A program made the position numbers and the translations under genes. A stretch of 64,000 nt of DNA, taken from Eledone cirrhosa (Eukaryota). The notes beneath the pieces are model-generated. The model searched no databases and had not been told where the DNA came from. It was given only the letters and a program-made list of their open reading frames with translations. The stretch is from contig OZ024741.1 of NCBI GenBank assembly GCA_964016885.1, forward strand, positions 434,001-498,000. Direction: 5' to 3'. Of the stretch, positions 7,481 through 50,069 are shown one piece after another; positions within the stretch are counted from its first letter, which is position 1; each line of letters begins with the position of its first letter.

Positions 7481-7490
7481 ATACGATTAG

Positions 7491-8896
7491 ATTTTGTGCG
7501 ACGTTAGGTTTGGTGCTATAGGAGAGTTTGATGGTATTTTTGTTGATTATGTTGTGGTAGTGGCTCTACCAACACCGACATACTTTCCGAAACCCGGTCC
7601 GGCGACATGCCACTACACTTTCGGGCCACATCTGGAACCTCAAAGATAATAATGTAACCTACAATCTCACTTGGAGCTTACTGTCCAGAGCTAACTCTTA
7701 CACGGGAAGATGCCGCCCGTGTAACTTATGCTCGGAGGAAACATTACAAATGCTGTTTTTGAAGGACCAACTCCTAAACAAGAAAGTCGAACTGGTAACC
7801 GCATGCAAACACAGATTGCATAGGACTTACCTCGCCCTCAAACCCCATAACGACCCGGGTGGGTAGACGAGAGCTGATACCCCCCACTTGCCGAATAAGT
7901 TAGGGGAAACCCCAGCTTACATAGGTAGATGTACCTCTTTTCTTTTCCTCTGTTTTCTTCTTCCCCCTGTCTCATCTTATCATTTCCTTCCACCCCCCCC
8001 GATCTTCTTCCTCGTCTGTGTTTCCCCTTTCGCCTACCCCGATGCAGCCCATTGGTCCTCTGTAGCCTCAGTACCCCCACCCCTGTAATTTTAAGATAGA
8101 ATTGGCCGAATATGCTTTACTAACCATTTATAGCAGATGTGTTAGACCCCTGTAATTTTGTATCATTTTTGTTACTACTCCAATTCTACAATTACAAAAT
8201 TTCTTATTTAGTATTTTCTATTCTCAACTTATTAACCTATTCGTTTACTATTCCTTTACTAACTATTTATAGCAGCTGTGTTAGATCCCTGAAAAGTTTG
8301 CATTATATTTTTTCACTACCCACTTCTACAATTTCTTATTTAGTATTTTCCATTCTCAACTTATTAACCTATTCTATAGCTTTGGCCGTACAAGCAACAC
8401 CTACTAATTAGAGCAGCTGTTTCTAGACTCTACTGTTTTTTTGTTTTTTTTTTATTCATTTCTCACTATCTAATTTTATATATATATTTTTTTATATTTC
8501 TTTCTATTATTTTTTATTGTCTTCTACTCTCATTCGAATTACTTATTCTATAACTTCCCTCCTCCATTTTCTCCAGAACAATTTTTCGATTTTTCATACA
8601 CTATCCTTAGAATCTGCTGTATAGATTTCACTTTCAATGCTTGACCGGCTCCACTCACTCCCTCATTGTTCTACAGGCAAGTTCAGCCACCCCTACCGCC
8701 CACCAAATGCCATGATAGACTTATTTGTGTTTACAACAAATTTTGACCAATCCTCTCGACAACTATAATCTTCCCATATAAGGAAGTACCCTTTGACAAG
8801 TTCGGCTATTTATTTACCAGGCTAAAAATTCTAATTTAGTCCAGAAATAGCCCTCGAAATGGCTTGAGCTCTGCCGTCGGGGTCATACTTTTTCCT
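7491..8896 (+). mobile_element. Naiad-type Penelope-like element, 5'-truncated with a short 5' inversion
   Basis: 7564-7866 reads LYQHRHTFRNP...HIWNLKD...CNLCSEE...ACKHR (GIY-YIG C-terminus, close to the 17679-18000 protein). 7491-7560 is an inverted piece (YHNIINKNTIKLSYST on the minus strand). A pLTR/3' region follows, ending in a hammerhead and (TA)n. Confidence 0.88.
8788..8883 (+). ncRNA. Type I hammerhead ribozyme, U3-A8 core variant, long stem II
   Basis: Stem I accct/ggggt; core TTGACAA; stem II ggctattt/aaatagcc; GAAA; stem III atggc/gccgt around loop ttgagctct; predicted cleavage after GTC at 8878. Confidence 0.75.
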
Positions 8897-8920
8897 ATAT
8901 ATATATATATATATATATAT

Positions 8921-11445
8921 TGTACAATATAGAGGAACAGTGGGAATTCCTGAAAGCAAACCTGCTGAAGGCGACAGATGAAGTCTGTGGCTGGAGCAGG
9001 CCTATAGGCAGGAGGAGAGTAACGTGGTGGTGGAACAGTAAGGTGGAGGAGTCAATTAAGGCCAAAAAGCAGGCTTGCAAAGTATGGCGGGATGGGGGAA
9101 GTAGAGAAGACTATCAAGTGGCCAGGAGGGAAGCTAGGAGACAAGTGTACTTCGCAAGAAGGGAAGCAGAGGAAAGAAGGTTCAAGCATGTTCTACAACG
9201 CGAGGACCAAAAACGTGAGGTGTTCAGGATTGCTGGGCAATGTGTCAAGGAAAACCTTGATATTGTCGGGGAGAAGTGTGTCCTTAATGATGATGGTGTA
9301 CTTGCCATCACTGACGCTGATAAGAAGGTAGCTTGGAAGTGTCACTATGAAAGGCTACTAAATGAGGAGAATAAATAGGAGAAAGACAGTCTCCCCCACA
9401 TCGACCCAATAGAGGGACCAGCAGTGTTAGTCGAAGGTAGTATAATAAGTAAGGCAATCAAAGATATGAAGACGGGTAAGGCGGCTGGGCCTTCGGAAAT
9501 AGTTGCTGAAATGCTGAAAGCTTCTGGAATGGTGGGACACACCATGGTCACCCGGATAGTAAACCAAGTCATGCAAAATGGGGTTGTTCCGAAGGACTGG
9601 CGTAGCAGCATCATCATTAACTGCTACAAGGGTAAAGGAGATGCCCTAGATAGGGGTAACTATAGAGGCATTAAATTAATCGACCAGGTCATGAAGGTCA
9701 CAGAAAAAGTAATAGCGCAACTAATCAGAGAGCAAATTGATCTAGATGAAATGCAGTTCGGGTTTGTGTCAGGTAAAAATACCACAGACGCTATTTTCAT
9801 TGTACGACAACTACTGGAGAAGTACCTAGCTAAAAGTAAACCCCTATACTTAGCTTTTGTCGACTTGGAGAAAGCCTTTGACAGAGTCTCCCGTTCCATT
9901 ATCTGGTGGGCTCTTAGAAAACTAGGTGTTGATGAATGGCTTGTGAGAGCTATACAAGCCATGTATAAAGAAACAGTCAGCAAGGTTAGAATTAACAACG
10001 AATATAGTGAAGAGTTTAGCGTAAAAGTTGGTGTTCATCGGGGCTCCGTTCTTAGCCCCCTACTATTTATTATTGCCCTTCAGGCTATAACAATGGAGTT
10101 CAAGACCGGCTGCCCATGGGAACTCTTATATGCAGATGATCTAACGCTCATAGCTGAATCAATGGCCGAACTAGAGAAGAAATTCCAAACATGGAAGCGT
10201 GGCCTAGAATCAAAAGGCCTTAAAATTAACCTGTCAAAGACTAAAGTTCTAGTTTGTAGGAAGGAAAATAGGGCACCGGTCCCATCCGGGATATGGCCAT
10301 TCTCAGTGTGTAGGAAAGGAGTAGGTAGAAACTCCATTTTATGTCCCAAATGCAAAGTATGGGTGCATAAAAGATGTAGTGGGATCACAGGTAAGCTAAC
10401 TAAGAACATAGATTTTATATGTGGCCGGTGTTCTGGTGCAATAAGTAGCAGCAAGTGCCCACAGAATACTAGCTCATTCCATTGCACAGATGGTTCTATA
10501 GAAATAGTGGACAGCTTCCGTTACCTGGGTGACAAAATCAGCAGTGGGGGATGGTGCTCTGAAAGTACAGTAGCTAGGGTCAGAACTGGATGGAAAAAGT
10601 TCAGAGAGCTTATACCACTATTAGCCGCTAAAGGGTTCTCTCTAAAAATGAAAGGCAGGCTGTATGATGCCTGCATACGAACAGCAATGTTACATGGCAG
10701 TGAGACCTGGGCATTGTGTGCAGAGGATATACGCAGACTGGAGAGAAACGAAGCTTGCATGCTCCGCTGGATGTGTAATAGTAATATACGTGAACGGCAA
10801 AGCATAAACGAACTAAGGGAAAAATTAGAAATAAGAGGGATCAGATGTTGTTTACTCGAGAGAAGACTACGTTGGTATGGTCACGTGATGCGCATGAAAG
10901 ACGACAGCTGTATAAAAAAGTGCAGGGCAATAAAAATAGACGGTAGCCACGGAGTAGGCAGACCCAGAAAAACCTGGGACGACTTGATAAATTCCGACCT
11001 CACACACTTACACCTCTCCAAGACAATGTCACTGGACCGAGATCTTTGGCGCTACACAGTAATACAGAAAACCCGCCTTACCTAAGTACAAAGTGAAACC
11101 TACTACAGTCAGTAGGCACCTCTAACAAAAATACACCTCCGTCCCACTACCCCCACCCCATCCACACCACCCCTTTCAATGTAAAGTTATGTTGGTACCA
11201 CAACATCCAGTCTGAAACAAATGAGGTCGTGTAGGTGTCACGACAAAAAAAAAACACACAGTCCACGCTGTAATGTGGCCGTGTTGGTAACACGGTAAAA
11301 ACCTCCCAGTCCACACTGTTAACGTGGTTGGTGTTAGGAAGGGCAGACAGTCCTATGCAAGCAAGACAACCACTCTTGCCTCAAATGGGAAAACTCCCGT
11401 CCAAACTCATGCAAGCGTGGAATATGGACGTTAAACGATGATGAT
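8921..11445 (+). mobile_element. RTE-clade LINE, 5'-truncated, young copy with long 3' UTR
   Basis: Continuous frame 8920-11085 broken only by TAG at 9376-9378 (TGG in sister copies); 3' UTR ends in ggacgttaaacgatgatgatg; (TA)n on both flanks. Confidence 0.92.
9424..11085 (+). CDS. RTE reverse transcriptase ORF (553 aa open stretch) with an internal PHD-like finger
   Basis: NYRGIKL, QFGFV, AFVDLEKAFDRV, GVHRGSVLSP, LLYADD, FRYLG, LHGSETW and RRLRWYGHV; Cys/His cluster at about 10294-10431. Confidence 0.85.
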   Translation: MLVEGSIISKAIKDMKTGKAAGPSEIVAEMLKASGMVGHTMVTRIVNQVMQNGVVPKDWRSSIIINCYKGKGDALDRGNYRGIKLIDQVMKVTEKVIAQLIREQIDLDEMQFGFVSGKNTTDAIFIVRQLLEKYLAKSKPLYLAFVDLEKAFDRVSRSIIWWALRKLGVDEWLVRAIQAMYKETVSKVRINNEYSEEFSVKVGVHRGSVLSPLLFIIALQAITMEFKTGCPWELLYADDLTLIAESMAELEKKFQTWKRGLESKGLKINLSKTKVLVCRKENRAPVPSGIWPFSVCRKGVGRNSILCPKCKVWVHKRCSGITGKLTKNIDFICGRCSGAISSSKCPQNTSSFHCTDGSIEIVDSFRYLGDKISSGGWCSESTVARVRTGWKKFRELIPLLAAKGFSLKMKGRLYDACIRTAMLHGSETWALCAEDIRRLERNEACMLRWMCNSNIRERQSINELREKLEIRGIRCCLLERRLRWYGHVMRMKDDSCIKKCRAIKIDGSHGVGRPRKTWDDLINSDLTHLHLSKTMSLDRDLWRYTVIQKTRLT

Positions 11446-11528
11446 GTATATATATATACGCATATACATATATATATATATATATATACGTATATATAGT
11501 TATGTAATAAACAACATAAGATAATTAT

Positions 11529-11599
11529 TTCATTAACTAAAGGTTTCATGAAGACAGACGTGCTTGACACAGACGTCTGAAATTGTTCGTCAGAATGAA
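11529..11599 (-). ncRNA. Type I hammerhead ribozyme motif (PLE terminal fragment)
   Basis: Minus strand: ttcatt CTGACGA a..cagacgt-loop-acgtctg..t GAAAC cttta GTT aatgaa; 6-bp stem I ttcatt/aatgaa. Confidence 0.6.
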
Positions 11600-11735
11600 C
11601 ATTTATTTAAAACGGATGTGAGATATGGATTTCAAAACAAAGTCTAGAACAATTGAAAGCGAGGATGAAATAAAATAACAGACGTAATGCAAAGGGGAAA
11701 ATAATAAATGTATATGTATATATATAAAAATATAC

Positions 11736-13765
11736 ACATGGCTTAGTGGTTAGAGCATTGGCCTTGCAATTTCTTGCGTGACAACTTACTGCAGGCTACT
11801 GATGAAACTTGTGGTTGGGGCAGAGCTTCAACCAGACAGATCTTGACCTGGTGGTGGAACAGCACGGTAGATAGGGCCATTAGAGACAAAAGACTGGCAT
11901 GGAAGGTTTGGGAAAATGGTGGAAGTAAAGAAGGATACACAGCCGCTAAGAGAGAAGCTAGACATCAGGTGTACTTAGCGCGCAGGGAGGCTGAGAGTAG
12001 GAGGTTTACCAATGTTCTGCAACGGGAAGATCAGAGACGTGCGATGTTTCACATTGGAAGGCAGTGTCTCAGTGCGAATCAGGATGTTGTTGGAGATGTG
12101 TGTCCGGAATGATGCCGGTGTACTTAGTGTCACGAATGATCAAAAAAAGGAGGCCTGGAAATGTCATTATGAGAGATTGATGAATGTAGAGAACGAATGG
12201 AAGAGAGAGAAATTACCCTCAGTTGACCCGACAGAGGGACCAGCTATTGAGATTGATGAATATAGGGTACAAGAGGCAATTAAGGAAATGAAGAATGGTA
12301 AGGCTGCTGGACTGTTGGGGATAGTTGCTGAGATACTGAAGGCATCAGAAGTAGGCACTAAACTGGTTGCACGCATCATCAATCAAGCTATATATGGTGG
12401 TGTCATACCCAAAGACTGGTGTAGCAGTATTCTCATAAATTGCTATAAAGGTAAAGGGCATGCTCTAGAGAGGAGCAATTATAGGGGCATAAAGCTGATG
12501 GATCAGGTTATGAAAGTGGCAGAGAGAATATTAGCGCAACTGATTAGAGAAAGGGTCAAATTAGATGAGATGCAGTTTGGTTTTGAAACTAGGTGTAGAG
12601 GAATGACTTGTGAGGACAGTGCAAGCTATGTACAGAGGTGCTGTCAGTAAAGTGAGAGTAGGAATGGAGTTTAGTGAGGAATTCCAGATACAAGTAGGTG
12701 TACATCAGGGTTCGGTCCTCAGCCCGCTCATGTTCATTATGGTCCTCCAAGCCATAACAGAGGAGTTTAAGACTGGATGCCCATGGGAACTTCTCTATGC
12801 TGATCTGGTTCTTATTGCAGAATCAGTAGAGGAGCTAGAGAATAAATTCTGGCTATGAAAACAGCAGTTGGAATCAAGAGGCCTGAGAGTGAACATAACT
12901 AAGACAAAAGTGTTGATAAGTAGAAGAGAGGACAATACTCTGATTCCATCAGGGAAATGGCCATGTTCAATATGTAGGAAATGAACTGACATAAATTCCA
13001 TAAAATGTACGCAATGCAGATCTTGGGTACACAAGAGATGTAGTGGGATAGCAGGCAAACTAACAGGTAGGGAAAACTACGTATGCAGTAAATGTACAGG
13101 GAAAGTTGGCAGTAGTAATCGCAGTGATAGACACTTTTCCAATGCAGGTGGGTTGTATAGAAGTGGTTGATAGCTTCCGGTAACTAGGTGATCAGATTAG
13201 CATGGGGGGGTCCGAGGCTATAGTATCTAGAATAAGGACGGGTTGGAAGAAGTTTAGGGAGCTGCTTCCTCTGTTGACAAAGAAGGGTTTCTCCCTGCAT
13301 ACGAAAAGACGGTTATATAATGCCTGTGTAAGATGCACGATGCTGCATGGTAGTGAGACATGGGCAGCAACTGCAGAGGATCTGCGACGGCTGGAGAGAA
13401 ATGAAGCAAGTATGCTCCATTGGGTGTGCAATGTCAATGTGCGTGAATGACCAAGCATAGACGAGTTGATAAAGAAACTGGATATAAGAGAGATAAGTTG
13501 TGGTGTGCAGGAAAGAAGGCTGAGATGTGATGCGCATGGAGGATGACTGCTGGGTAAAGAAGTGCCAAGAAATCCCAGTAGAAGGAAGACGCAGTAGAGG
13601 TAGACCACAAAAAACGTGGGCGGAGGTGGTGAGAGCAGACCTCAAATTGCTGAAACTCACGGAGGAGATGACGAAGGACCGTGTCAAGTGGAGAGATGCT
13701 CTGCTGAATTGGACCCATCCAACCCTTGCAAGCAGGGAAAAGCGGACGTAAAATGATGATGATGA
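11736..13765 (+). mobile_element. RTE-clade LINE (short-tail lineage), degenerate, preceded by a 35-bp SINE A head fragment
   Basis: WWWNSTV, GKAAG, NYRGIKL, GVHQGSVLSP, WPCSIC, LHGSETW and GRPQKTW; tail cccttgcaagcagggaaaagcggacgtaaaatgatgatg; the SINE head cacatggcttagtggttagagc is at 11736-11770. Confidence 0.88.
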
Positions 13766-14019
13766 TATATAGACATACATGTATATATATATACCTACAG
13801 GGACATATACACACACATATGCATACATACATATACACATGCACACATATATATACACTCACATACACATACAATTGTATTTATTTATTTTTACATACAT
13901 ATCCACGAGTATATATATATATAGGTAGAACACTGGTAGGTAATATCTGTAGTGGTAGAGCACTCAGTCCATGGGACGAGTTAGGTAGAAGTGGTAACAC
14001 AACAGTTAGTTCACCATAC

Positions 14020-14057
14020 CGAGAACAATTGTTTCACCTTAGCGGATCCTCAGCTCG
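14020..14057 (-). ncRNA. Minimal type I hammerhead ribozyme within a probable PLE terminal fragment (~13925-14285)
   Basis: Minus strand: cgag CTGAGGA tccgctaaggt GAAAC aatt GTT ctcg; stem I cgag/ctcg; palindromic stem/loop III aacaattgtt. Confidence 0.65.
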
Positions 14058-14289
14058 TAATGGTCATGGTTATACGAAATAGGAAGAACAAACGTATGAA
14101 CGAGCATGTGCAGAAACTGTCACTTCACCCAAGCGATACAATGCCACGGGCGAAAGGTGTAAGAGAGATAACTGCGAAAGTCCAAAAAGTAGTTCGAGTT
14201 GATAAGAAAATTAGAATGTTGTTGTTATTCAATCCAGAACTTTATAGTTATGTAAGAGGTGTTTCCAGACATGTGGACGTGTGGGGGGA

Positions 14290-15485
14290 TCGGGTCTTCT
14301 GTATTACTGCGTGACGCCAGAGGTCACAGTTGTGTGTCATCGCCTTTGAGAGGTGTAATTGGGTAAGGTCGGCTTTTATCACCTCACCCCAGGTCTTCTT
14401 GGGTCTCCCTACTCCGCGGTTGCCATCGACTTCTAGTTCTCTGCACTTTTTTATGCAGCTATCATCCTTCATACGCATCACATGTCCATACCAACACAAC
14501 CGCCTCTCCTGCACGCAGCATTTGATTCTTCTTATGCTCAGTCTCTCTCTCTCAATTCGTTTATGCTTTGCCATTTGCGTATATTACTATTACACATCCA
14601 TCGTAGCATGCAGGCTTCATTTCTTTCTAATCTCCGCAAATCTTCTACAGACAGTGCCCAGGTCTCACTACCATGTAACATTGCTGTTCGTATACACGCA
14701 TCATACAGTCTGCCTTTCATTTTGAGGGAAAAACCTTTTGCAGCTAGCAGTGGCTGTAGCTCCCTGAACTTCTTCCATCCCGTTCTTACCCTAGTTATTG
14801 TACTTTCCGAATACCCACCTGTGCTGTTAATTCGGTCACCTAGGTAGCATAAGCGGTCTACTGTTTCTACAGAGCCCTCCCAGAGTTTGGTGGTGCTTGT
14901 TTCCTGTGGTCGTTTGCTGCTTGCTGTCCTAGCGCAGCTGCTACATGTGAAGCCTACATTCTTAGTTAAGCTTCCTGAGATCCCGCTATATCTCTTGTGT
15001 ACCCATTGTTTGCATTTGGGGCGGAGAATGGAGTTCCTACCTACACCTTTCCTACATACAGAGCAAGGCTATTTCCCTGAGGGGATCTGGGTTCTGTTTT
15101 CTCGTCTACTTAGAAGGACCTTCGTCTTTGTCAGGTTGACTTTGAGACCCTTTCTTTCTTGTCCCTGCTTCCAAGTTTGGAATTTCTTCTCTAGTTCTAC
15201 CATAGATTCAGCTATAAGTGCGAGGTCATCTGCATACAGGAGTTCCCATGGGCATCCGGTCTTAAACTTCTCCGTTATTGCCTGCAGGACTATGATGAAC
15301 AGGAGAGGGCTAAGAACAGAGCCCTGGTGGACACCGACCTGTACGCTAAATTCCTCGCTATAGTTATTACTAATCCTAATGCTGACTGCTCCCTATACAT
15401 GGCTTGTAGAGCTTTCACAAGCCATTCATCTACTCCTAGTTTTCTAAGAACCCACCAGATTATAACACGAGGAACGCTGTCAAAG
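14290..15485 (-). mobile_element. RTE-clade LINE fragment
   Basis: Minus-strand GVHQGSVLSP, LLYADD, PHD-like Cys cluster, LHGSETW and GRPKKTW; closely similar to 30586-31700. Confidence 0.88.
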
Positions 15486-15509: not shown

Positions 15510-15853
15510 ATCATCATCATCATCATCATAATTTTACGTCCGCTTTTTCCTGCTTGCAAGGGTGGGACAGGAACTGATTCTGGCTTGATTTCTCCAGCTG
15601 GATTCCCTTCCTAACACCAACCTCATTTACAGTGAGTGCTGGGTGCCTTTTTGCTGTGGCACCTCCACGACCACTTTGCAGTGGAATGATATGGACCCCA
15701 GTCCCTATCATCTCATTTCTACAGCTGAGTAAACTGGAGCAATGTGAAAGAAAGTGTCTTGCTCAAGGAATCAATACATCACCCGGTCTGAGAATTGAAC
15801 TCACAACCTTTCGATTGCAAGGCCAATGCTCTAACCACTAAGCCATGTGCCTC
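15510..15853 (-). mobile_element. SINE family A, full length
   Basis: Reverse complement of the 42718-43046 copy; tRNA-like head ggaggcacatggcttagtggttagagc. Confidence 0.85.
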
Positions 15854-16388
15854 CATATATATTATACTTGGGGAAGGTCATATTGTTATAGTATTGCCAG
15901 AAATAATAACAGAACATACTCACTGTTTGGCTTAGATTGGTTTTCACTTCTATATCTTTTATATCTCCATAGTTAATTTATCTGGCAATCAATGTTTATC
16001 ATTATCTCTGTTTGTGCATGCATTTGTGTGTGTGTTTCAGGTTTGGTGTGTGTGTTTCATGTTTGGTGTGTGTGTGTTCATGTTTGGTGTGTGTGTTTGT
16101 GTTTGAGTGTATGTGTTTTTGTTTTTGTATTCTATCTTTGTTCACTAATGTATATTTATATGTGTTTGTTGTTATTGTACTTGTGTATATATTTACTTAT
16201 TTATTTACATTTCCCTTAGGTCACTATTGTTTGTTTGGGTATGGTTGTTATTCCTAGATATAGATATATATGTGTGTGTATATATATATATATATAACGA
16301 AGGAAATGTGGTAAGGAGCCAGGTGGACCATAACGCACCAAAGTACTCGATACTTAGGGTAGTAGAGTGGGTAATAGGAACAAGTAAG

Positions 16389-16483
16389 ACCCCGACGGCT
16401 GAGCTCAAGCCGTTTCGACGGCTAATTCTGTACTGAATGAAAAATTAATTCTGGTATTTAAATAGCCGAACTTATCAAGGGGT
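16389..16483 (-). ncRNA. Type I hammerhead ribozyme in the 3' pLTR, U3-A8 variant
   Basis: Minus strand: acccc TTGATAA g..cggcta(long insert)tagccg..c GAAA cggct tgagctc agccg TC ggggt; predicted cleavage after 16394. Confidence 0.8.
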
Positions 16484-17678
16484 AATTCCATATATGGTCA
16501 AAGAGATAATCACCAGGATTGGTCACATCACAAGTTAGTAGTAAATCTGTGATGGCAAGTTGGTGGGGGAAGGGGTAGCTAAACCTGCCAGTAGGAGAAA
16601 AAGGGGAGAGGGGGTGGAGTAGACCCATTCATGCATTGGTAGTGCCAGCTGCAGCTGGGTGTGAGATCAAAGGGGATACTGGGGAGGGGGAGGAGGTCGA
16701 AACGGTAAGTAGAACAATGAAAGGTAAAACTGTAAAAGGTACTGAGAGAGAAAAAAAAATATAAGCAAAATCTGGTTACTAAGACTTAAGTCTCTCGCTA
16801 TTGCTAGGCTGAAGAAATACATAAATAAATAAATAAACAAATAAGTGAATAAAAGAATAGATAAATAGATTTTAAAAAAAAAAAAAAAAGATAAATATAT
16901 ATATATATATATATAATGTAGAATAAAAAAATAAATGATAATAATAGAAATAAACTAGGTGGGACGGAAATAAAGGGACCCTTATACGAGGTATAAGTGC
17001 ATGTATCGTACGGTGACGGGTCAACAAAAGGGGGGCCAGAATACTAAAGAGACTACCACGAAAATAATAAAGGTTTCTACCCCAAACACAGGGCCAGCAA
17101 CCACCCAGTGCAAGAAAGTAAACTAGTACGAGAATATAATTCAGGGTCTCGCAAAAAAATACTAGTGCTAACTCTAAGGGTACCGCCACGAAACAAAAAA
17201 GTCTTATACAAGCTACATGAAAGATCGTACGAAGTAAAAGTAAAGAACAGAAAATTATAACAGGAACACCCCCCCCCCCCCAAAAAAAAAAGGGAAAAAG
17301 AAAAAAGAGATACTGGATAAACGAGAAATTAAAGCCAAGATGCCACTAAGAGATATAGAAGGCACGGAAAAAGGGGACAGCGGTCGGAGAAGGGGGCGAG
17401 TATCCGAAGTCTAACACCTCTGCTATAAAAAGCGGAGTCAGCCACATCTATCATAGAATAGGGGAGGGGGTGGGGGTGCTGAAGCTACAAGGGACCGATG
17501 GGCTACCTCGGGTGGGCGAGAAAAAGACGACGACAAAGAAAGGGAACTGGGGTAGAAGGACTAGGGAGGGATGGGGGAAGGAGGAAATATAGAGGAAGCG
17601 ATAAAAGAATATAAAAGAAGATCTTACGTCTCCATAGGCAAGCAGGGGTTACCCATTACAAAATAGGTAAGTGGGGTG

Positions 17679-19837
17679 TTATAGCCCTAGTCTACCCCCC
17701 GGGTCATTATGGGGTTTGAGGGCGAGGTAAGTCCTACGTAATCGGTGTTTACATGCAGTAACCAGTTCATCTTTCTTGTTTAGGAGTTGGTCCGTCGAAA
17801 ACAGCATTTGTAATGTTTCCTCCGAGCATAAATTGCACGGACGGCGTCCTCCCGTGTAAGAGTTGGCTCTGGACAGTAATTTCCAAGTGAGATCATAGTT
17901 GATGTCCTTGAGGTCCCATATGTGGCCCGAAAGTGTAGTGGCGTGACGCCGGGCCGGGTTTCGGAAGGTATGTCTGTGTTGGTATAGCCGGGTCTTGAAG
18001 TCGCATGCGGTTAATCCTATATAAGCTTTATTGGAGGTGTCCGTGCTCACGTTGCACTGGTAGATCACATTACGGTCTCTGCATCTGTTGTCGAGGGGGC
18101 AACTGGATCTATCAGGACAGTTGCACCTCCTGGTCGGCTCTCCACTGCTATTTAGGTTGTTTCTTCCATCGGGGTTGAGTTTTTTGTTGTTGGAGGAGAC
18201 GATGTTTTGTGCGAAGTTAGGTGTAGTGCTGTAAGAGAGTTTGATGGTATTTTTGTTAATTATGTTGTGGTAGCGGTGTTGTGGTGGGAAGTGTTTTTCA
18301 ATGAGCCTAAAGAAAATTTTCCCGATGGGAGTTGTCACCTCAGCGTTGTGGGGAGGATTGAACCATGTTACATTGTGTGAGTGGTGGTGTCGCCTGCTGG
18401 TTCCGCTAATGGGAGCTGGACAGTAGGATATTTCCTCCCGGAAACCACTCCGCTTGAGGGCCTGGTTGTAGTAAGGCGCATGTTCATCGAATATCTTCTC
18501 ATTAGCTGACAAACGGGATATACGGAGGGAGATGTTTTTGACCAGGTTGTTGGTGATGTTCCTGGGATGGTTAGATCGGCGGTGGATGTAGTGCAGGTTG
18601 TCATTGGGTTTCCTGTATGGGTAGTACAGGTCATTATTGAGATCGAGGGTAACGTCCAGGAAATTAACTCGGGTCAGGGACGTTTGTAGGGTTATTTTAA
18701 ATCCCCAGTCGCGGAAGAAGCTGATTAATTGTTTACGGACCCGATCTGTACTACTGGGGTTGTACCCTTTAAGGGTAAGGAGCCCATCATCACGGTACAA
18801 TCCACCACCGAAAGCAGGAAACATATCGGTGAGTTTGGCTATAAGGAATAATCCTATAAGATCTGTGACCTCCGCCGAATCCATAGCGCCCATGCTGACG
18901 TCGAAGGGTGAGTCAGGAGCTCTTTTTATCCATTTGGAGTTGTCAAAGAGTAAGACTGTCTTCCTGGCGTGGAGGATGATTTTTCTTTCCTGGTCAGTGA
19001 TGGGCACAAGTGCTTCGGCGAAGTCCAAGGCGGCAGTAAGTAGCGGTAAGGTGATGGAAGCATAGTAGCTCTCTATGTCGAACTGGATAAATTTAGTGTC
19101 TCGTTTATCCTCCAAATTGCTGAACCATGAGATAACTTCCTGGGTGTTGATCCATAAGCTAAGTCGGGCGTGTTGCTTGACTTTAGGTATCATGCGGTCT
19201 AGGATTTTTTTGCTGATTCTCCCTATGTCGGACTTCGTTGGGTTTATAAGCCTGATAGATGGTTTACGGTCGAAATCGGATTTGTGGTCCTTCAGTGTGA
19301 AGTAGGGTGTCCGTGGGTCTAGGGGTTCGGTGCGGTCGGCGACCCCGAGGCTGGAGGTAATTTGTTGTCCATCTCGATTAATGTCCTCGATGCATGAGTG
19401 GTTGGCCTTTTTATAGGTGGAGTTTAGGCTGCTCCTGATCAGTGTGTGATATCTGTCGGGGTTGACAAAGTATAGGTTCCCAGTTTTATCCGAATGCACC
19501 ATGATGTCATTGGTGTTATCATACTCTGTTAAGTTGCTACGGAGTTTTTGTAGGAATCGGTTGTGTCTGGGTTTGAATTTAAGGTTCTTGACCAGTTGGA
19601 AGAGGTCATTCTCGAAGGGTGAGAGCGAAGGGTTCGGGGAGAAGATTTGTAGGTAATAAATCCGAATCTCTCCTTGGTACCGAAGTCCTGATTGTCGCAG
19701 AATCTGTCGTAGAAAAAAGTTCTCCATCTAAGTCTTTTCGCAAATAGGTCGATTTTTTGCGTGATCATCCGAAGGTAAAGTTTTTTCGGTGGGATTGGGA
19801 TGTTCTTGGTAGAGAAGTCGATATTGTGTTTTCGCAT
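17679..19837 (-). CDS. PLE protein: RT + CxCx5Cx5C linker + GIY-YIG endonuclease; one -1 frameshift near 19637
   Basis: Starts MRKHNIDFSTKNIPIP...KRLRWR (ATG at 19837), switches frame in a C4 run, then DKT, IRLINP, QFDIESYY, MGAMDSAE, LYRDDGL, FLDVTL, CNCPDRSSCPLDNRC, NVIYQC..YIGLT, CNLC and CKH. Confidence 0.9.
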
Positions 19838-20022
19838 GGTGCAAGTGAAACAAATTGAGCTTAGCGGAAACGTCTGGATACGGCGTGGTAGGGTCGGAAA
19901 GTGCTCTACTACGGGGATAGGAGCTAGATAACGAAGGAAATGTGGTAAGGAACTAGGTGGACCATAACGCACCAAAGTACTCGATACTTAGGGTAGTAGA
20001 GTGGGTAATAGGAACAAGTAAG

Positions 20023-20117
20023 ACCCCGACGGCTGAGCTCAAGCCGTTTCGACGGTTAATTCTGTACTGAATGAAAAATTAATTCTGGTATTTAAATAGC
20101 CGAACTTATCAAGGGGC
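20023..20117 (-). ncRNA. Type I hammerhead ribozyme in the 5' pLTR, U3-A8 variant
   Basis: Same fold as 16389-16483, with gcccc/ggggt stem I and one stem II substitution; predicted cleavage after 20028, ~190 nt upstream of the ATG. Confidence 0.78.
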
Positions 20118-21107
20118 AATTCCATATATGGTCAAAGAGATAATCACCAGGATTGGTCACATCACAAGTTAGTAGTAAATCTGTGATGGTAAGTTGGTGG
20201 GGGAAGGGGTAGCTAAACCTGCCAGTAGGAGAAAAAGGGGAGAGGGGGTGGAGTAGACCCATTCATGCATTGGTAGTGCCAGCTGCAGCTGGGTGTGAGA
20301 TCAAAGGGGATACTGGGGAGGGGGAGGAGGTCGAAACGGTAAGTAGAACAATGAAAGGTAAAACTGTAAAAGGTACTGAGAGAGAAAAAAAAATATAAGC
20401 AAAATCTGGTTACTAAGACTTAAGTCTCTCGCTATTGCTAGGCTGAAGAAATACATAAATAAATAAATAAACAAATAAGTGAATAAAAGAATAGATAAAT
20501 AGATTTTAAAAAAATAATTAAAAAAATAAAAATATATATATATATATAATGTAGAATAAAAAAATAAATGATAATAATAGAAATAAACTAGGTGGGACGG
20601 AAATGAAGGGACCCTTATACGAGGTATAAGTGTGTGTATCGTACGGTGACGGGTCAACAAAAGGGGGGCCAGAATACTAAAGAGACTACCTCGAAAATAA
20701 TAAAGGTTTCTACCCCAAACACAGGGCCAGCAACCACCCAGTGCAAGAAAGTAAACTAGTACGAGAATATAATTCAGGGTCCCGCAAAAAAATACTAGTG
20801 CTAACTCTAAGGGTACCGCCACGAAACAAAAAGTCTTATACAAGCTACATGAAAGATCGTACGAAGTAAAAGTAAAGAACAGAAAATTAATACAGAAACA
20901 CCCCCCCCCCCCCCCCCCCCCACCCACCCACCCCCCAAGGGAAAAAGAAAAAAGAGATACTGGATAAACAAGAAATTAAAGCCAAGATGCCACTAAGAAA
21001 TATAGAAGGCACGGAAAAAGGGGACAGCGGTCGGAGAAGGGGGCGAGTATCCGAAGTCTAACACCTCTGCTATAAAAAGCGGAGTCAGCCACATCTATCA
21101 TAGAATA

Positions 21108-22151
21108 ATATGGTTGTTGAGAGGACATTTATTTTTAACAGGGCAATTACAATTGCGATTAGAGAAATTAAGAGTTATTAACAAGTGACCTAGTGTTATC
21201 TATAGGAGGAATTGGATTGGAGAAGTTATTTACGATAGGAATAATAGTTTCTTGATTTAGAATGGGATTAAGAACATTTAACGAAGTTGCGTTTGACGTT
21301 GTATTTGGATTTGCAGAAATTAGCCTAGAGTTAACAATGACGTCGGGAGTACTATTACTATTATTATGATATTCAGTGTTGGAAGGAAGAGATTTAGTAT
21401 TTAGTATTTTATTGTTGTGTTTTGAGATAATGTTGGAGATGTTGGAGGAGGTTGAATAGGAAAATTTTTTGTGTGTTTGTTAAATATTTTACTATAGATA
21501 TGTGAGGGAGGGAAGCATTTATTTAAGGCATTAAAGAATAATTTAGGAATATTATTAATAGAGATGGAGAAGAGCATTATACCAGATTATGTTTTTGTAT
21601 CTAGGTCTTTTATTAAAGTTATTGGAATGATCATGATTAATTATTCTACTGTAAGATCTTCTAGGATTTGTATCTTTACTGTATTTGATTTTATCAGGAT
21701 AACCGGCTTTAGAAAGCGCGTTATTATAGTAATTGGCGTTAGCATCAAAGATGTTTTTATTAGATGATAGGTTGGATATTCTTTTCCCAATATTACTAAC
21801 TATAGCATTCTTAATATTAGTGGGGTGGTTAGATTTAAAATTAACATAATTTAGATTCTCATTGTTTTTATGGTAAGGGTAATATAGGCCAGTGTCAAGA
21901 TTAAGAGATACATCCAAGAAGTTAGCTAGTTTGATGTTGTTATCAAATTCAATTTTTAAGTTATGTAGGTTGAAGAGATTACGTATATTGTTCTTAATAA
22001 TATTAAGGTTAACTATGTTGCAATTTAAGATAGTAAAAAGGCCATCATCACGATAAATTCCACCGCGAAGTTGAGGAATTTTCCGATTCAAAGAGTTCAA
22101 AGTAAAGATACCAATTAAATCTGTCAATTGGGATGAATCGGATGCACCCAT
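21108..22151 (-). mobile_element. AT-rich Naiad-type PLE fragment (RT motif to linker zinc finger)
   Basis: MGASDSSQLTDLIG, IYRDDGL, FLDVSL, SNHP, and CNCPVKNKCPLNN at ~21110-21160; cut off at the edge of the intact Naiad. Confidence 0.85.
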
Positions 22152-44699: not shown

Positions 44700-46350
44700 T
44701 AATGTCTTATGGGAGTGGTTTGTAGAATTACTAGGCATAACATTGCTAATTGTATCATCATGTTGCGAGTTACTATCTATGTTACCAGAAGAAAAATATT
44801 TACTAATTCTCTTATTATTACTACTCGCTATGTGATTCGCAATGTTAGGTGTGCTAGAATAAGAGATTTTAATGGTATTTTTATTAATTAAATTATGATA
44901 TTTATGATCAATTGGGAAATTTGTTTCCATAATAGAGATGAATACTCAAAATATATTAGTAGATTGAAGGGTGGATTAGAATATGAATTTAGCATTCTTC
45001 TATTCTTTTTATTTTTGTTACTAATAAGTAAATTCATACGATTATAATCTTCTGTTTTATATCTAGTATTACAGATGTTAGGTTTAGTTAATACACTATG
45101 CTTTTTATTCATAATATTTCTCTCATCTTTAAGATTTATTTTATTAGTGTTGGGAGGAACTGTAGATGGGTGTATATCATCATTTAATCCACTGTTACAC
45201 ACAATAACACTACAACCATTATTCCAAATATTTTTAGGTTTTTTCATAGCCATATTATGAGAAATAATATCAGGTTGTTTTTTACAGTTGGTAAAAGAGT
45301 TTTTAGGCATAAACTTAATTTTATTATTAGAGCCAGAACGTGATAAAGCTTCATTATAATAATGGGCATTATGGTTAAATGTGTGTCAATTGTAAGATAA
45401 ATTACTAATTCTATTAGATACACCTTTAATAATTGAGTTTAAGACAGATCTAGGGTGGTTAGAATTGGTATCAACATAGAAAAGTTTTTCATTAGGTTTA
45501 TGGTATGGTGTAAAGGTTTTAGAATCCAAACTGGGGCTAACACCAAGGAAATTAACAGTTTTGGAGTTCTTTCAATTGTATATTTTTTATAATCTAAAGT
45601 AAATAAGGCATCAGCGCGATATAATCCACCCTTCAGGTAAGGTAAAGCCTTATAAATTTCATTCAAGAGGTACAATCCGACTAAATCTGTGACCTGTGCA
45701 GAATCACTAGACCCCATAGTGATATCAAAATTATCCGGTGTATTCTTATGGGTCCATAATTGATCTTCAAATTTGATGATAGTCTTACAGGCTGCAAGAA
45801 TTACATCTACTTGGGATCTAGTTAAGTCACTATTATCTATGACCATAATAAGAGCCTTATTCAATAAAATAGGAGAGATAGATGTATAATATGAGTTAAT
45901 GTCGAATTGAATAAACTTCATAGACTTACTATCACCACTCAATCACTTCCCTAGTATTACCCCAAAAGTTGAACTGTATTTTCTGTTTGATTTAAGGGAT
46001 AATTTGGTCCAGAATCCTTTTACTAATTATACCAATGTCAGACTTAGAAGGGCATATTAATCTAACTAGGATTAGTATTAAAATCTTCCTTATGATCTTT
46101 TAAAGTAAACCTGGGAGGGTTAGGGGTATAAGGTTGAGTAATCTTTCAAGTTTTATTTTACTTACAATATTTATGTCATCTAAGATTTTATATATAGTTT
46201 TCTTATAATTTTTATACAATTCCTTATATATAAATTGTTATAATCTATATATACATATAAGTGTTATAATCTAGGCTATAAATATAAGTGTTATAATCTA
46301 GGCTATAAATATTTTTAGTTTTATCAGCTAGGACCAAGATGTTCTTATTT
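44700..46350 (-). mobile_element. AT-rich Naiad-type PLE fragment, degenerate
   Basis: RLICPSKSDIG near 46050, FIQFDINSYY, MGSSDSAQVTDLVGL, LYRADAL and YHNLINKNTIKISYSSTPN. Confidence 0.85.
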
Positions 46351-46791: not shown

Positions 46792-46921
46792 TATAAAAGG
46801 GGTTTGATTGGTGTTATGGACTCTACCAACCAAACATTCAAGAACAAAGAGTAAAGAGCAAAAGTAGGGGACTTTTGGTAGTAGAGTGGGTAATAGGAAA
46901 AGAGTCAGGACTTCAACGGCT

Positions 46922-47202
46922 GAGCTGTAGTGTGCGGGAGAGAAGACTGCATTGGTATCGACATATGATGTGCATGGAGGATGACCGCTGCGTAAAAAAG
47001 TGCCAAGAAATCCCAGTGGAAGGAAGACGCAGTCAAGGAAGACCACAAAATCATGGGCAGAAGTGGTGAGAGCTGACCTCAGATCACTGAAGCTGACAGA
47101 GGAAATGACGAAGGACCATGATGAATGGAGAGATACTGAGCTGAAAAGGAGCTGTCCCACCCTTGTAAGCAAGGAAAAGCGGACGTAAAATGAGGATGAT
47201 GA
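46922..47202 (+). mobile_element. RTE (short-tail lineage) 3' fragment
   Basis: RERRLHWY...CVKKCQEIPVEGRR plus tail; same family as 13500-13765. Confidence 0.85.
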
Positions 47203-49590: not shown

Positions 49591-49874
49591 TCTTTCACTT
49601 TGATGTAGCTAGGAGAGTTAGTGACACATGTTTATGTCTCATGTAAACAATGTATCCTATAACTTAGTGATTCTATGTCTGGAGTGTAGTGGACTAAAAT
49701 ATCCTACTTATAAAGCATATGAAAGTTGTCACCAAGGAAAAGCATCTGGCTGTAGAATACAAAAAGTCTTATCTAAGCCATCAGTATGAGAAATGAAGAT
49801 GGACATAAAAATGATGATTATGATTGCGGTGGTACTCTTTTATCCCCTATTTTCCTTTTATTTTATTTCTCTAG

Positions 49875-50044
49875 ATTTAAAAAATTCCACATTCCAATAC
49901 CATGAAGATGACCCAGTTACTGACCATCATAGAAGTCGCCGTGATACCTATACCTATACTGTTTGTCCAATAATAGTTGTTGCTGACTACACCTTCTTCA
50001 GAAATGTTGGCCATAGCAGTACTTTGGCTACAGCAAACTATCTT
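49875..50044 (+). CDS. ADAM17: Exon of an ADAM17/TACE-like metalloprotease (end of prodomain, furin site, start of catalytic domain)
   Basis: Polypyrimidine tract + AG acceptor and GTAAGT donor. Reads (D)LKNSTFQYHEDDPVTDHHRSRRDTYTYTVCPIIVVADYTFFRNVGHSSTLATANYL, comparable to the ADAM17 RxKR..CKLLVVADHRFY..MG..TTNYL segment. Confidence 0.88.
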
Positions 50045-50069
50045 GTAAGTATCAATTTATATATATATA

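Follow-up and report, generated by a model that had tools for sequence, protein, structure and literature searches.

A Hydra-clade Penelope-like element of Eledone cirrhosa with repeat-borne hammerhead motifs, and what the DNA ends of its family suggest about its RNA

We analysed a window of 64,000 nt from the Eledone cirrhosa assembly GCA_964016885.1 (contig OZ024741.1, positions 434,001 to 498,000, forward strand), which carries on its minus strand, at 16294 to 21107, a Penelope-like element (PLE). The element is built of two near-identical direct repeats of about 1.17 kb, or pseudo-long terminal repeats (pseudo-LTRs), which surround an open reading frame (ORF) for a reverse transcriptase (RT) and a GIY-YIG endonuclease (Table 1; positions are those of the window). 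Local alignment of the two repeats gives 1144 matches and 22 mismatches, and divergence is 1.1% (12 of 1073 positions) when two homopolymer or microsatellite stretches are left out. The boundary at 16294 is the same family boundary that is seen in sister copies. A leader of 190 nt precedes the ATG at 19837, and the ORF is broken only once, by one base missing from a C4 run; residues 1-67 and 68-721 of an intact sister ORF each match the window copy at 95%. Pfam returned no family for the ORF pieces, and a PDB search returned nothing for the element. Each repeat has a type I hammerhead ribozyme motif, and the predicted cleavage base C17 lies at 20028 in the 5' repeat and at 16394 in the 3' repeat; the unit from 20027 to 16394 measures 3634 nt. 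A first-pass annotation of this DNA had described the repeats, one hammerhead per repeat, the single ORF break, the cut positions with their spacing and leader, DKT and CxCx5Cx5C linker motifs, and an antisense orientation to ADAM17-like exons; all of this is borne out on the sequence, the exons lying on the plus strand and the element on the minus strand.

The element almost certainly belongs to the Hydra clade of PLEs. According to Craig et al. (2021; PMC8557442), Hydra elements have a C-terminal endonuclease, DKT and RWK motifs, a CxCx5C linker, no CCHH motif, a hammerhead and (TA)n targets. Naiads share with our element a Penelope-like RT, (TA)n preference and pseudo-LTRs, but are described there as carrying an insertion-in-fingers domain, an N-terminal endonuclease with CCHH, DKA and no canonical hammerhead. 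The first-pass annotation had proposed Naiad, yet the motifs it quoted are published hallmarks of Hydra, and the four Naiad features that we tested all fail. The RT precedes the endonuclease; the element reads SDKTGN, with the DKT of Hydra and not the DKA of Naiad; the GIY-YIG core has no internal CxxC, unlike Neptune-type ORFs in the same genome, and there is no CCHH; and both repeats contain a three-stem type I hammerhead motif. Naiad membership was rejected on these grounds. The sister copy L021 has a single ORF of 721 amino acids in which the RT is followed by a C-terminal GIY-YIG domain, a layout that the window copy shares. The Hydra cysteine motifs are present (CNCPDRSSC linker, CNLCSEE and CKH), RWR is a variant of RWK that also occurs in Hydra-1_Crog, and the hammerhead within the repeat and the insertion at (TA)n are likewise those of Hydra. 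Among the best 120 of 2031 homologs, 103 have DKT, 114 an RWK-like motif and 113 CxCx4-6C. A quick tree, which included no Naiad, placed the element among 14 Hydra-motif homologs and apart from the Neptune-type ORFs of the same genome (support 99); named Hydra sequences were compared by eye only, and in that comparison Hydra-1_Obim is colinear with the element. A Naiad reference was sought among GIY-YIG loci and found in none of the 31 screened. Long open Neptune-type PLE ORFs (frames of 636-1096 amino acids) were seen at L253, L255 and L256 in the same genome.

Compared with what PMC8557442 gives for Hydra-1_Obim and its clade, the element has the same order of RT and GIY-YIG, DKT, an RWK-like motif, the CxCx5C linker, CxxC and CxH around E and N, and no CCHH; it also shares with the clade a repeat-borne hammerhead, (TA)n targets, an inverted 5' copy and a one-sided tail. 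It differs in its unit of 3.63 kb, against 1.1-3.0 kb in the listed Hydra families, in a core with U3-A8 where all Hydra rows of File S2 have C3-G8, and in a loop II of about 35 nt, against 3-9 nt in those rows. Its hammerhead sequence is unlike that of Hydra-1_Obim, which makes it a different family. The element thus represents a new family of the known Hydra clade, distinguished by its unusual ribozyme and its longer unit.

At least 40 near-full copies, 93-100% identical, are present in the genome (40 of 4540 candidates were scored), and 30 near-full copies were analysed in detail. At the C run, 15 of 28 copies are in frame and 13 are shifted by varying amounts (two of the 30 were unscored), which rules out a programmed -1 frameshift. 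A long open frame with both endonuclease motifs was found in eight of the 30. Seven of these eight are of normal length and belong to a sister subfamily that is 93-94% identical to the window copy, and in the eighth the end is altered; the 16 copies with the best scores include none of them, and two lack the exact start motif. Long C runs may be assembly errors; none of the listed contigs spans the C4 run of the window copy. Copies L016 and L017 have in common a deletion of about 280 nt over the end of the ORF and the start of the 3' untranslated region (UTR), which indicates that the deleted variant was itself copied. Because of the repeat divergence, the slippage frameshift and a stem II lesion in its 5' hammerhead, the window copy is likely dead. 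It had been called young and possibly active; a recent insertion fits the data, and activity is not supported. In our reading it inserted recently and is probably dead, and its family may still be active.

The hammerheads have the core UUGAUAA...GAAA...GUC, with GUC as cut site and stems I to III, and thus all the elements of the type I motif (a 3-8 pair, GAAA, a UH cut site and three stems), the 3-8 pair being U3-A8. This pair in place of C3-G8 has been reported for schistosome elements by Cervera and de la Pena (2014; PMC4209133). The same paper agrees with our element in having type I hammerheads in both repeats and in proposing a path of cutting, ligation and rolling to partial tandems; here, by contrast, stem III is a stable 6-bp helix and not minimal, and the start site proposed below would split the ribozyme. 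All three stems form in the minimum-energy fold of the 3' hammerhead. An Rfam scan reported no hammerhead; the motifs were checked by hand, by folding and against homologs. The stem II change at 20056 occurs in one of 56 copies. Core position N7 is U in 25, G in 25 and C in 5 of these 56, and there is one other core change; four core positions were fixed in the search that gave this pattern, and a listing selected on GAAA and stem III shows the same. A near-fixed core with a free N7 is mild evidence of selection, the copies being closely related.

Most copies of the family are not long. They consist of a short and a long arm joined head to head, with TA tracts outside; these copies, hereafter minis, typically measure about 190 bp (137-242 bp at 55 loci), and the family has left about ten thousand insertions, mostly such tiny mirror-image ones. 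Descent from a single master mini is unlikely, as junctions and sizes vary. We number positions from the predicted cut. In a sample of 115 arms chosen without regard to their 5' end, 74 stop between -34 and -46, two between -47 and -99, 11 past -100, 25 between -2 and -33, and three at 0 or -1. Position -41 is the A of an Initiator-like TCAGT in loop II. Arms that stop at -41 before a purine foreign to the element number 3,210, and among the first 100 listed this purine is G in 86 and A in 14 (by eye). At 30 loci examined singly, the extra purine is a G that does not come from the other arm in 13, a G that possibly does in 10, and an A in seven. At the control position -7, 15 of 53 matches are true stops, 12 with A and 3 with G (by eye). 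In L1, capped templates are marked by an additional G (PMC11702581). The pile-up with its G points with good probability to a capped transcription start at -41 (20068 and 16434). If so, a transcript from this promoter would lack the upstream half of the 5' hammerhead and have only its 3' half. The release of a unit RNA had been proposed from the two hammerheads; its geometry stands, and simple release by two whole ribozymes does not fit a start at 20068. Upstream of the long arm, L039 and L049 have short reiterated copies of the sequence just 3' of -41, as if the RT had re-annealed to the template end and recopied it repeatedly.

Penelope of Drosophila virilis also has an internal Initiator-type promoter that is regenerated by tandem arrangement, according to Schostak et al. 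(2008; PMC2377424); an intron begins there 46 bp past the start, whereas here the putative start is inside the ribozyme and no intron was seen (none was sought). In the literature searched, which excludes most subscription papers, we found neither a transcription start described within a PLE hammerhead nor head-to-head minis with a cap mark; the supplements of PMC11167929 and the figures of PMC8557442 could bear on this novelty.

A smaller class of arms stops at the predicted cut. In 643 arms the base expected just before the cut is replaced by A or T; among the 100 listed first, 60 are true stops and 40 are substitutions (by eye). The comparable class of stops is about 140 at the cut and 12 at -7. 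There are 436 junctions nearby, and in about 22 of the first 100 both arms end at the cut and flank a short A/T insert (by eye). We consider these stops moderate evidence for cutting at the predicted base in vivo, and overall it is likely that the hammerheads do cut RNA there.

The opposite ends of the insertions are fixed. At 30 loci, TA-flanked ends lie +17 to +20 or +97 to +100 past the cut, except for one fold-back and one slightly shorter end, and each overlaps its (TA)n target by TAT. Genome-wide, exact patterns find at least 9,946 long (+100) and at least 9,807 short (+20) ends, both being lower bounds and the long count including internal leaders. About 5 nt after each end stands a bulged hairpin, in which variation falls mostly at loop, bulge or wobble positions. 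The second hairpin is found only in the leader because the long end stops short of it. If it marks an RT start, complementary DNA (cDNA) would begin close to the unit RNA's 5' end and would have to cross an RNA end or a junction to reach the ORF. A linear 3634-nt RNA would be unable to template a full copy, since all insertion ends examined lie past the cut. In PAc, a Poseidon element of Anolis, two internal RT starts downstream of the hammerhead cut also define the tail, and both target strands are cut and extended. In our element, by contrast, the putative starts fall within the 5' UTR, with some 80 nt between them and a 3-nt TAT target overlap, and the DNA ends point to a capped start and to some in vivo cutting, which Frangieh et al. 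(2024; PMC11167929) did not detect in RNA reads.

These observations can be arranged in one scheme. RNA polymerase II would start at -41 (20068), and the messenger RNA (mRNA) would comprise the 3' half of the 5' hammerhead and the whole 3' hammerhead. The protein would bind the two bulged leader hairpins and nick both strands of a (TA)n tract, and cDNA would be primed at +20 and +100 with the 3-nt TAT overlap. On linear capped RNA, the two cDNAs would reach the cap after about 60 and 140 nt, run off there and be joined head to head, giving dead-end minis of about 190 bp; on hammerhead-cut RNA they would run off at the cut. In the least certain step, some RNA would be cut at both ends and ligated to a circle of 3634 nt, the 5' cut occurring either in a transcript that reads through from upstream or through a split ribozyme that the leader and the 3' repeat reconstitute together. 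Copying round the circle would then yield the ORF and a partial second unit, as in the window copy. It is a speculative and rather improbable addition that Hydra elements place their promoter in loop II such that the upstream half in the 3' repeat and the capped leader form a split ribozyme that decaps the mRNA and lets the circle close. The two halves, in family-type sequence, are predicted to co-fold into a three-way junction (-27.9 kcal/mol together, -1.0 and -13.6 kcal/mol when folded separately); with the 5' variant of the window copy the predicted co-fold mispairs the core. If such a switch existed, switched mRNA would be the sole template for full copies, and unswitched mRNA would leave thousands of palindromic fossils of about 190 bp that record both RNA 5' ends.

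The long copies bear on the template. Among 30 copies with ORF, none has its 5' end between -75 and +54, while 25 reach beyond -75 and five end at +55 to +186; some of these alignments break early at indels, and the true 5' ends may lie further upstream. At 13 loci, leader and tail of one locus differ by 3.3 positions on average, against 6.2 between loci (0 of 10,000 shuffles). An endless template fits the long copies best, and we place a circle first, strand transfer second and uncleaved tandem transcripts third; the circular unit RNA itself, a model for PLE hammerheads proposed in PMC4209133, we hold to be somewhat more probable than its negation. That paper states that its authors had no in vivo evidence for it. 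With strand transfer, a capped mRNA would run from -41 to the 3' cut with a terminal repeat of exactly 41 nt, and leader-started cDNA would stop at the cap and jump to the cut 3' end; the start, cut and hairpin data would be the same, repeats within one locus would be alike, and the reiterations in L039 and L049 would be jumps near -41. Yet only 13 of 87 arms that reach -34 pass -46, whereas all 25 ORF copies that reach the site pass it, and a cap-derived G at the jump site, sought as a trace of such transfer, was not found: read-through arms have 5 G (3 loci) and 6 A beside 3,650 templated bases. We therefore consider strand transfer unlikely, if a serious competitor.

Still less probable is the read-through of tandem arrays by uncleaved transcripts, in which the hammerhead would be dispensable and the stops at the cut would be RT pauses at a helix junction. 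Tandem units do exist (L005, and three spaced matches elsewhere), the hammerheads are predicted to fold poorly, and cleavage is dispensable for the anole element in vitro (PMC11167929). However, the 5' and 3' repeats do not form lineages of their own, since few of the 158 differences seen within loci recur across loci; stops are about tenfold more frequent exactly at the cut than at -7, with A/T inserts replacing the templated base; and the core is conserved around a free N7. That the window copy is active, its two whole hammerheads releasing a monomer and its frameshift being a sequencing error or programmed, is very improbable. The ORF has only one lesion, an assembly error is possible, and the 5' repeat is long enough for a whole hammerhead if transcribed from upstream; but the variable C run speaks against programming, the run is only C4 here, the stem II lesion is rare among copies, and the host gene is transcribed from the opposite strand.

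Several points weigh against the preferred scheme and call for caution. The evidence for start, cut and circle alike comes from DNA ends, and efficient template jumping on full-length RNA would leave a nearly identical DNA pattern. Folding predictions give the catalytic structure only a small share, 0.045 in the 3' and 0.001 in the 5' hammerhead. In upstream comparisons the mate repeat ranked as nearest copy in just 14 of 27 cases, and subfamily structure by itself also yields shared variants. Many of the stops at -35 to -45 fall on short palindromes, which blurs their exact position. Arms that stop at the cut are a minority of about 2-4%, and their position is a helix junction, at which RT might pause; among the first 100 of the 436 junctions, 19 are flush and about 11 are possibly one-base read-through. 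For the anole element, PMC11167929 describes cleavage as dispensable in vitro, unprocessed RNA as the main substrate, and no RNA reads ending at the cut. Of the self-cleavage and circular unit RNA proposed at first, what stands is that the DNA ends of the family favour a circular or otherwise endless template and moderately support a cut at C17. The explanation as a whole, with a dead Hydra copy, a capped start in loop II and long copies made from circular unit RNA, seems to us slightly better than an even bet.

Other features of the window are mostly remnants of mobile elements. At its 5' end the element is fused, in the same orientation and with no TA tract at the joint, to the piece of another Hydra family at 21108-22150; the fusion would have arisen either by a template jump onto RNA of that family or by loss of target DNA when the element inserted. 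A sister subfamily has left pieces (endonuclease part, 3' UTR and hammerhead region) at 7485-8898, with an inverted piece at 7485-7563, and a remnant of another Hydra family (43-60% amino acid identity) lies at 44724-46139 on the minus strand, with a short tail-like piece at 46871-46926. Several RT remnants of the long interspersed element type occupy 8851-15392, one with an open frame of 568 amino acids at 9379-11082, and a transfer RNA-like stretch at 15788-15845 (minus strand) is probably the head of a short interspersed element. The ADAM17-like exon at about 49874-50050 on the plus strand corresponds to the start of the catalytic domain (best PDB matches all ADAM17, E = 0.023) and contains RSRR, presumably a furin-type site. 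Further ADAM17-like exons lie downstream of the window on the plus strand (G000 C2:506354, 528463 and 567297); motif scans of the window found no pro-domain exon, and a full-length ADAM17 homolog for exon mapping was sought and none found.

Table 1. Features of the element and its 5' neighbour (window coordinates)
Feature	Position	Strand	Remark
5' pseudo-LTR: 5'-truncated second unit (3' UTR, hammerhead, leader nt 1-100)	19928..21107	-	
3' pseudo-LTR: long (+100) end, TAT overlap joins (TA)n	16294..17460	-	
ORF part 1, amino acids 1-67 (MRKHNIDFS..., RWR motif)	19637..19837	-	
ORF part 2: RT (DKT, YRDD), CxCx5C linker, C-terminal GIY-YIG with CxxC and CxH, without CCHH	17679..19637	-	
C4 run, one base short of frame; poly-C slippage site, length varies among sister copies	19636..19639	-	
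5' type I hammerhead, U3-A8 core, predicted cut after 20028	20011..20123	-	G-to-A stem II lesion at 20056
3' type I hammerhead, family-type sequence, predicted cut after 16394	16377..16489	-	
Initiator-like TCAGT in loop II; putative capped start A 20068, 41 nt upstream of the cut	20064..20070	-	insertion ends
Same Initiator-like site in 3' repeat (A 16434)	16430..16436	-	
Family short (+17 to +20) end position, putative second RT start site	16374..16377	-	
Bulged hairpin 1 (+26 to +49), directly behind short end	19979..20002	-	copy at 16345-16368
Bulged hairpin 2 (+104 to +125), directly behind long end	19903..19924	-	leader only, outside 3' repeat
Different Hydra family: frameshifted AT-rich piece from the C-terminal half of the RT to the linker (about 40% amino acid identity)	21108..22150	-	starts at (TA)n

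The window copy itself is ordinary, and the interest lies in its family. The role of the hammerhead in Penelope-like elements and the origin of their partial tandems are an open question in the field. From DNA alone, this family offers base-exact candidates for a capped start, a cut, two RT starts and their hairpins, with thousands of copies as statistics. The choice between a circle and strand transfer thereby becomes directly testable, and naturally intact ORFs are available for biochemistry.

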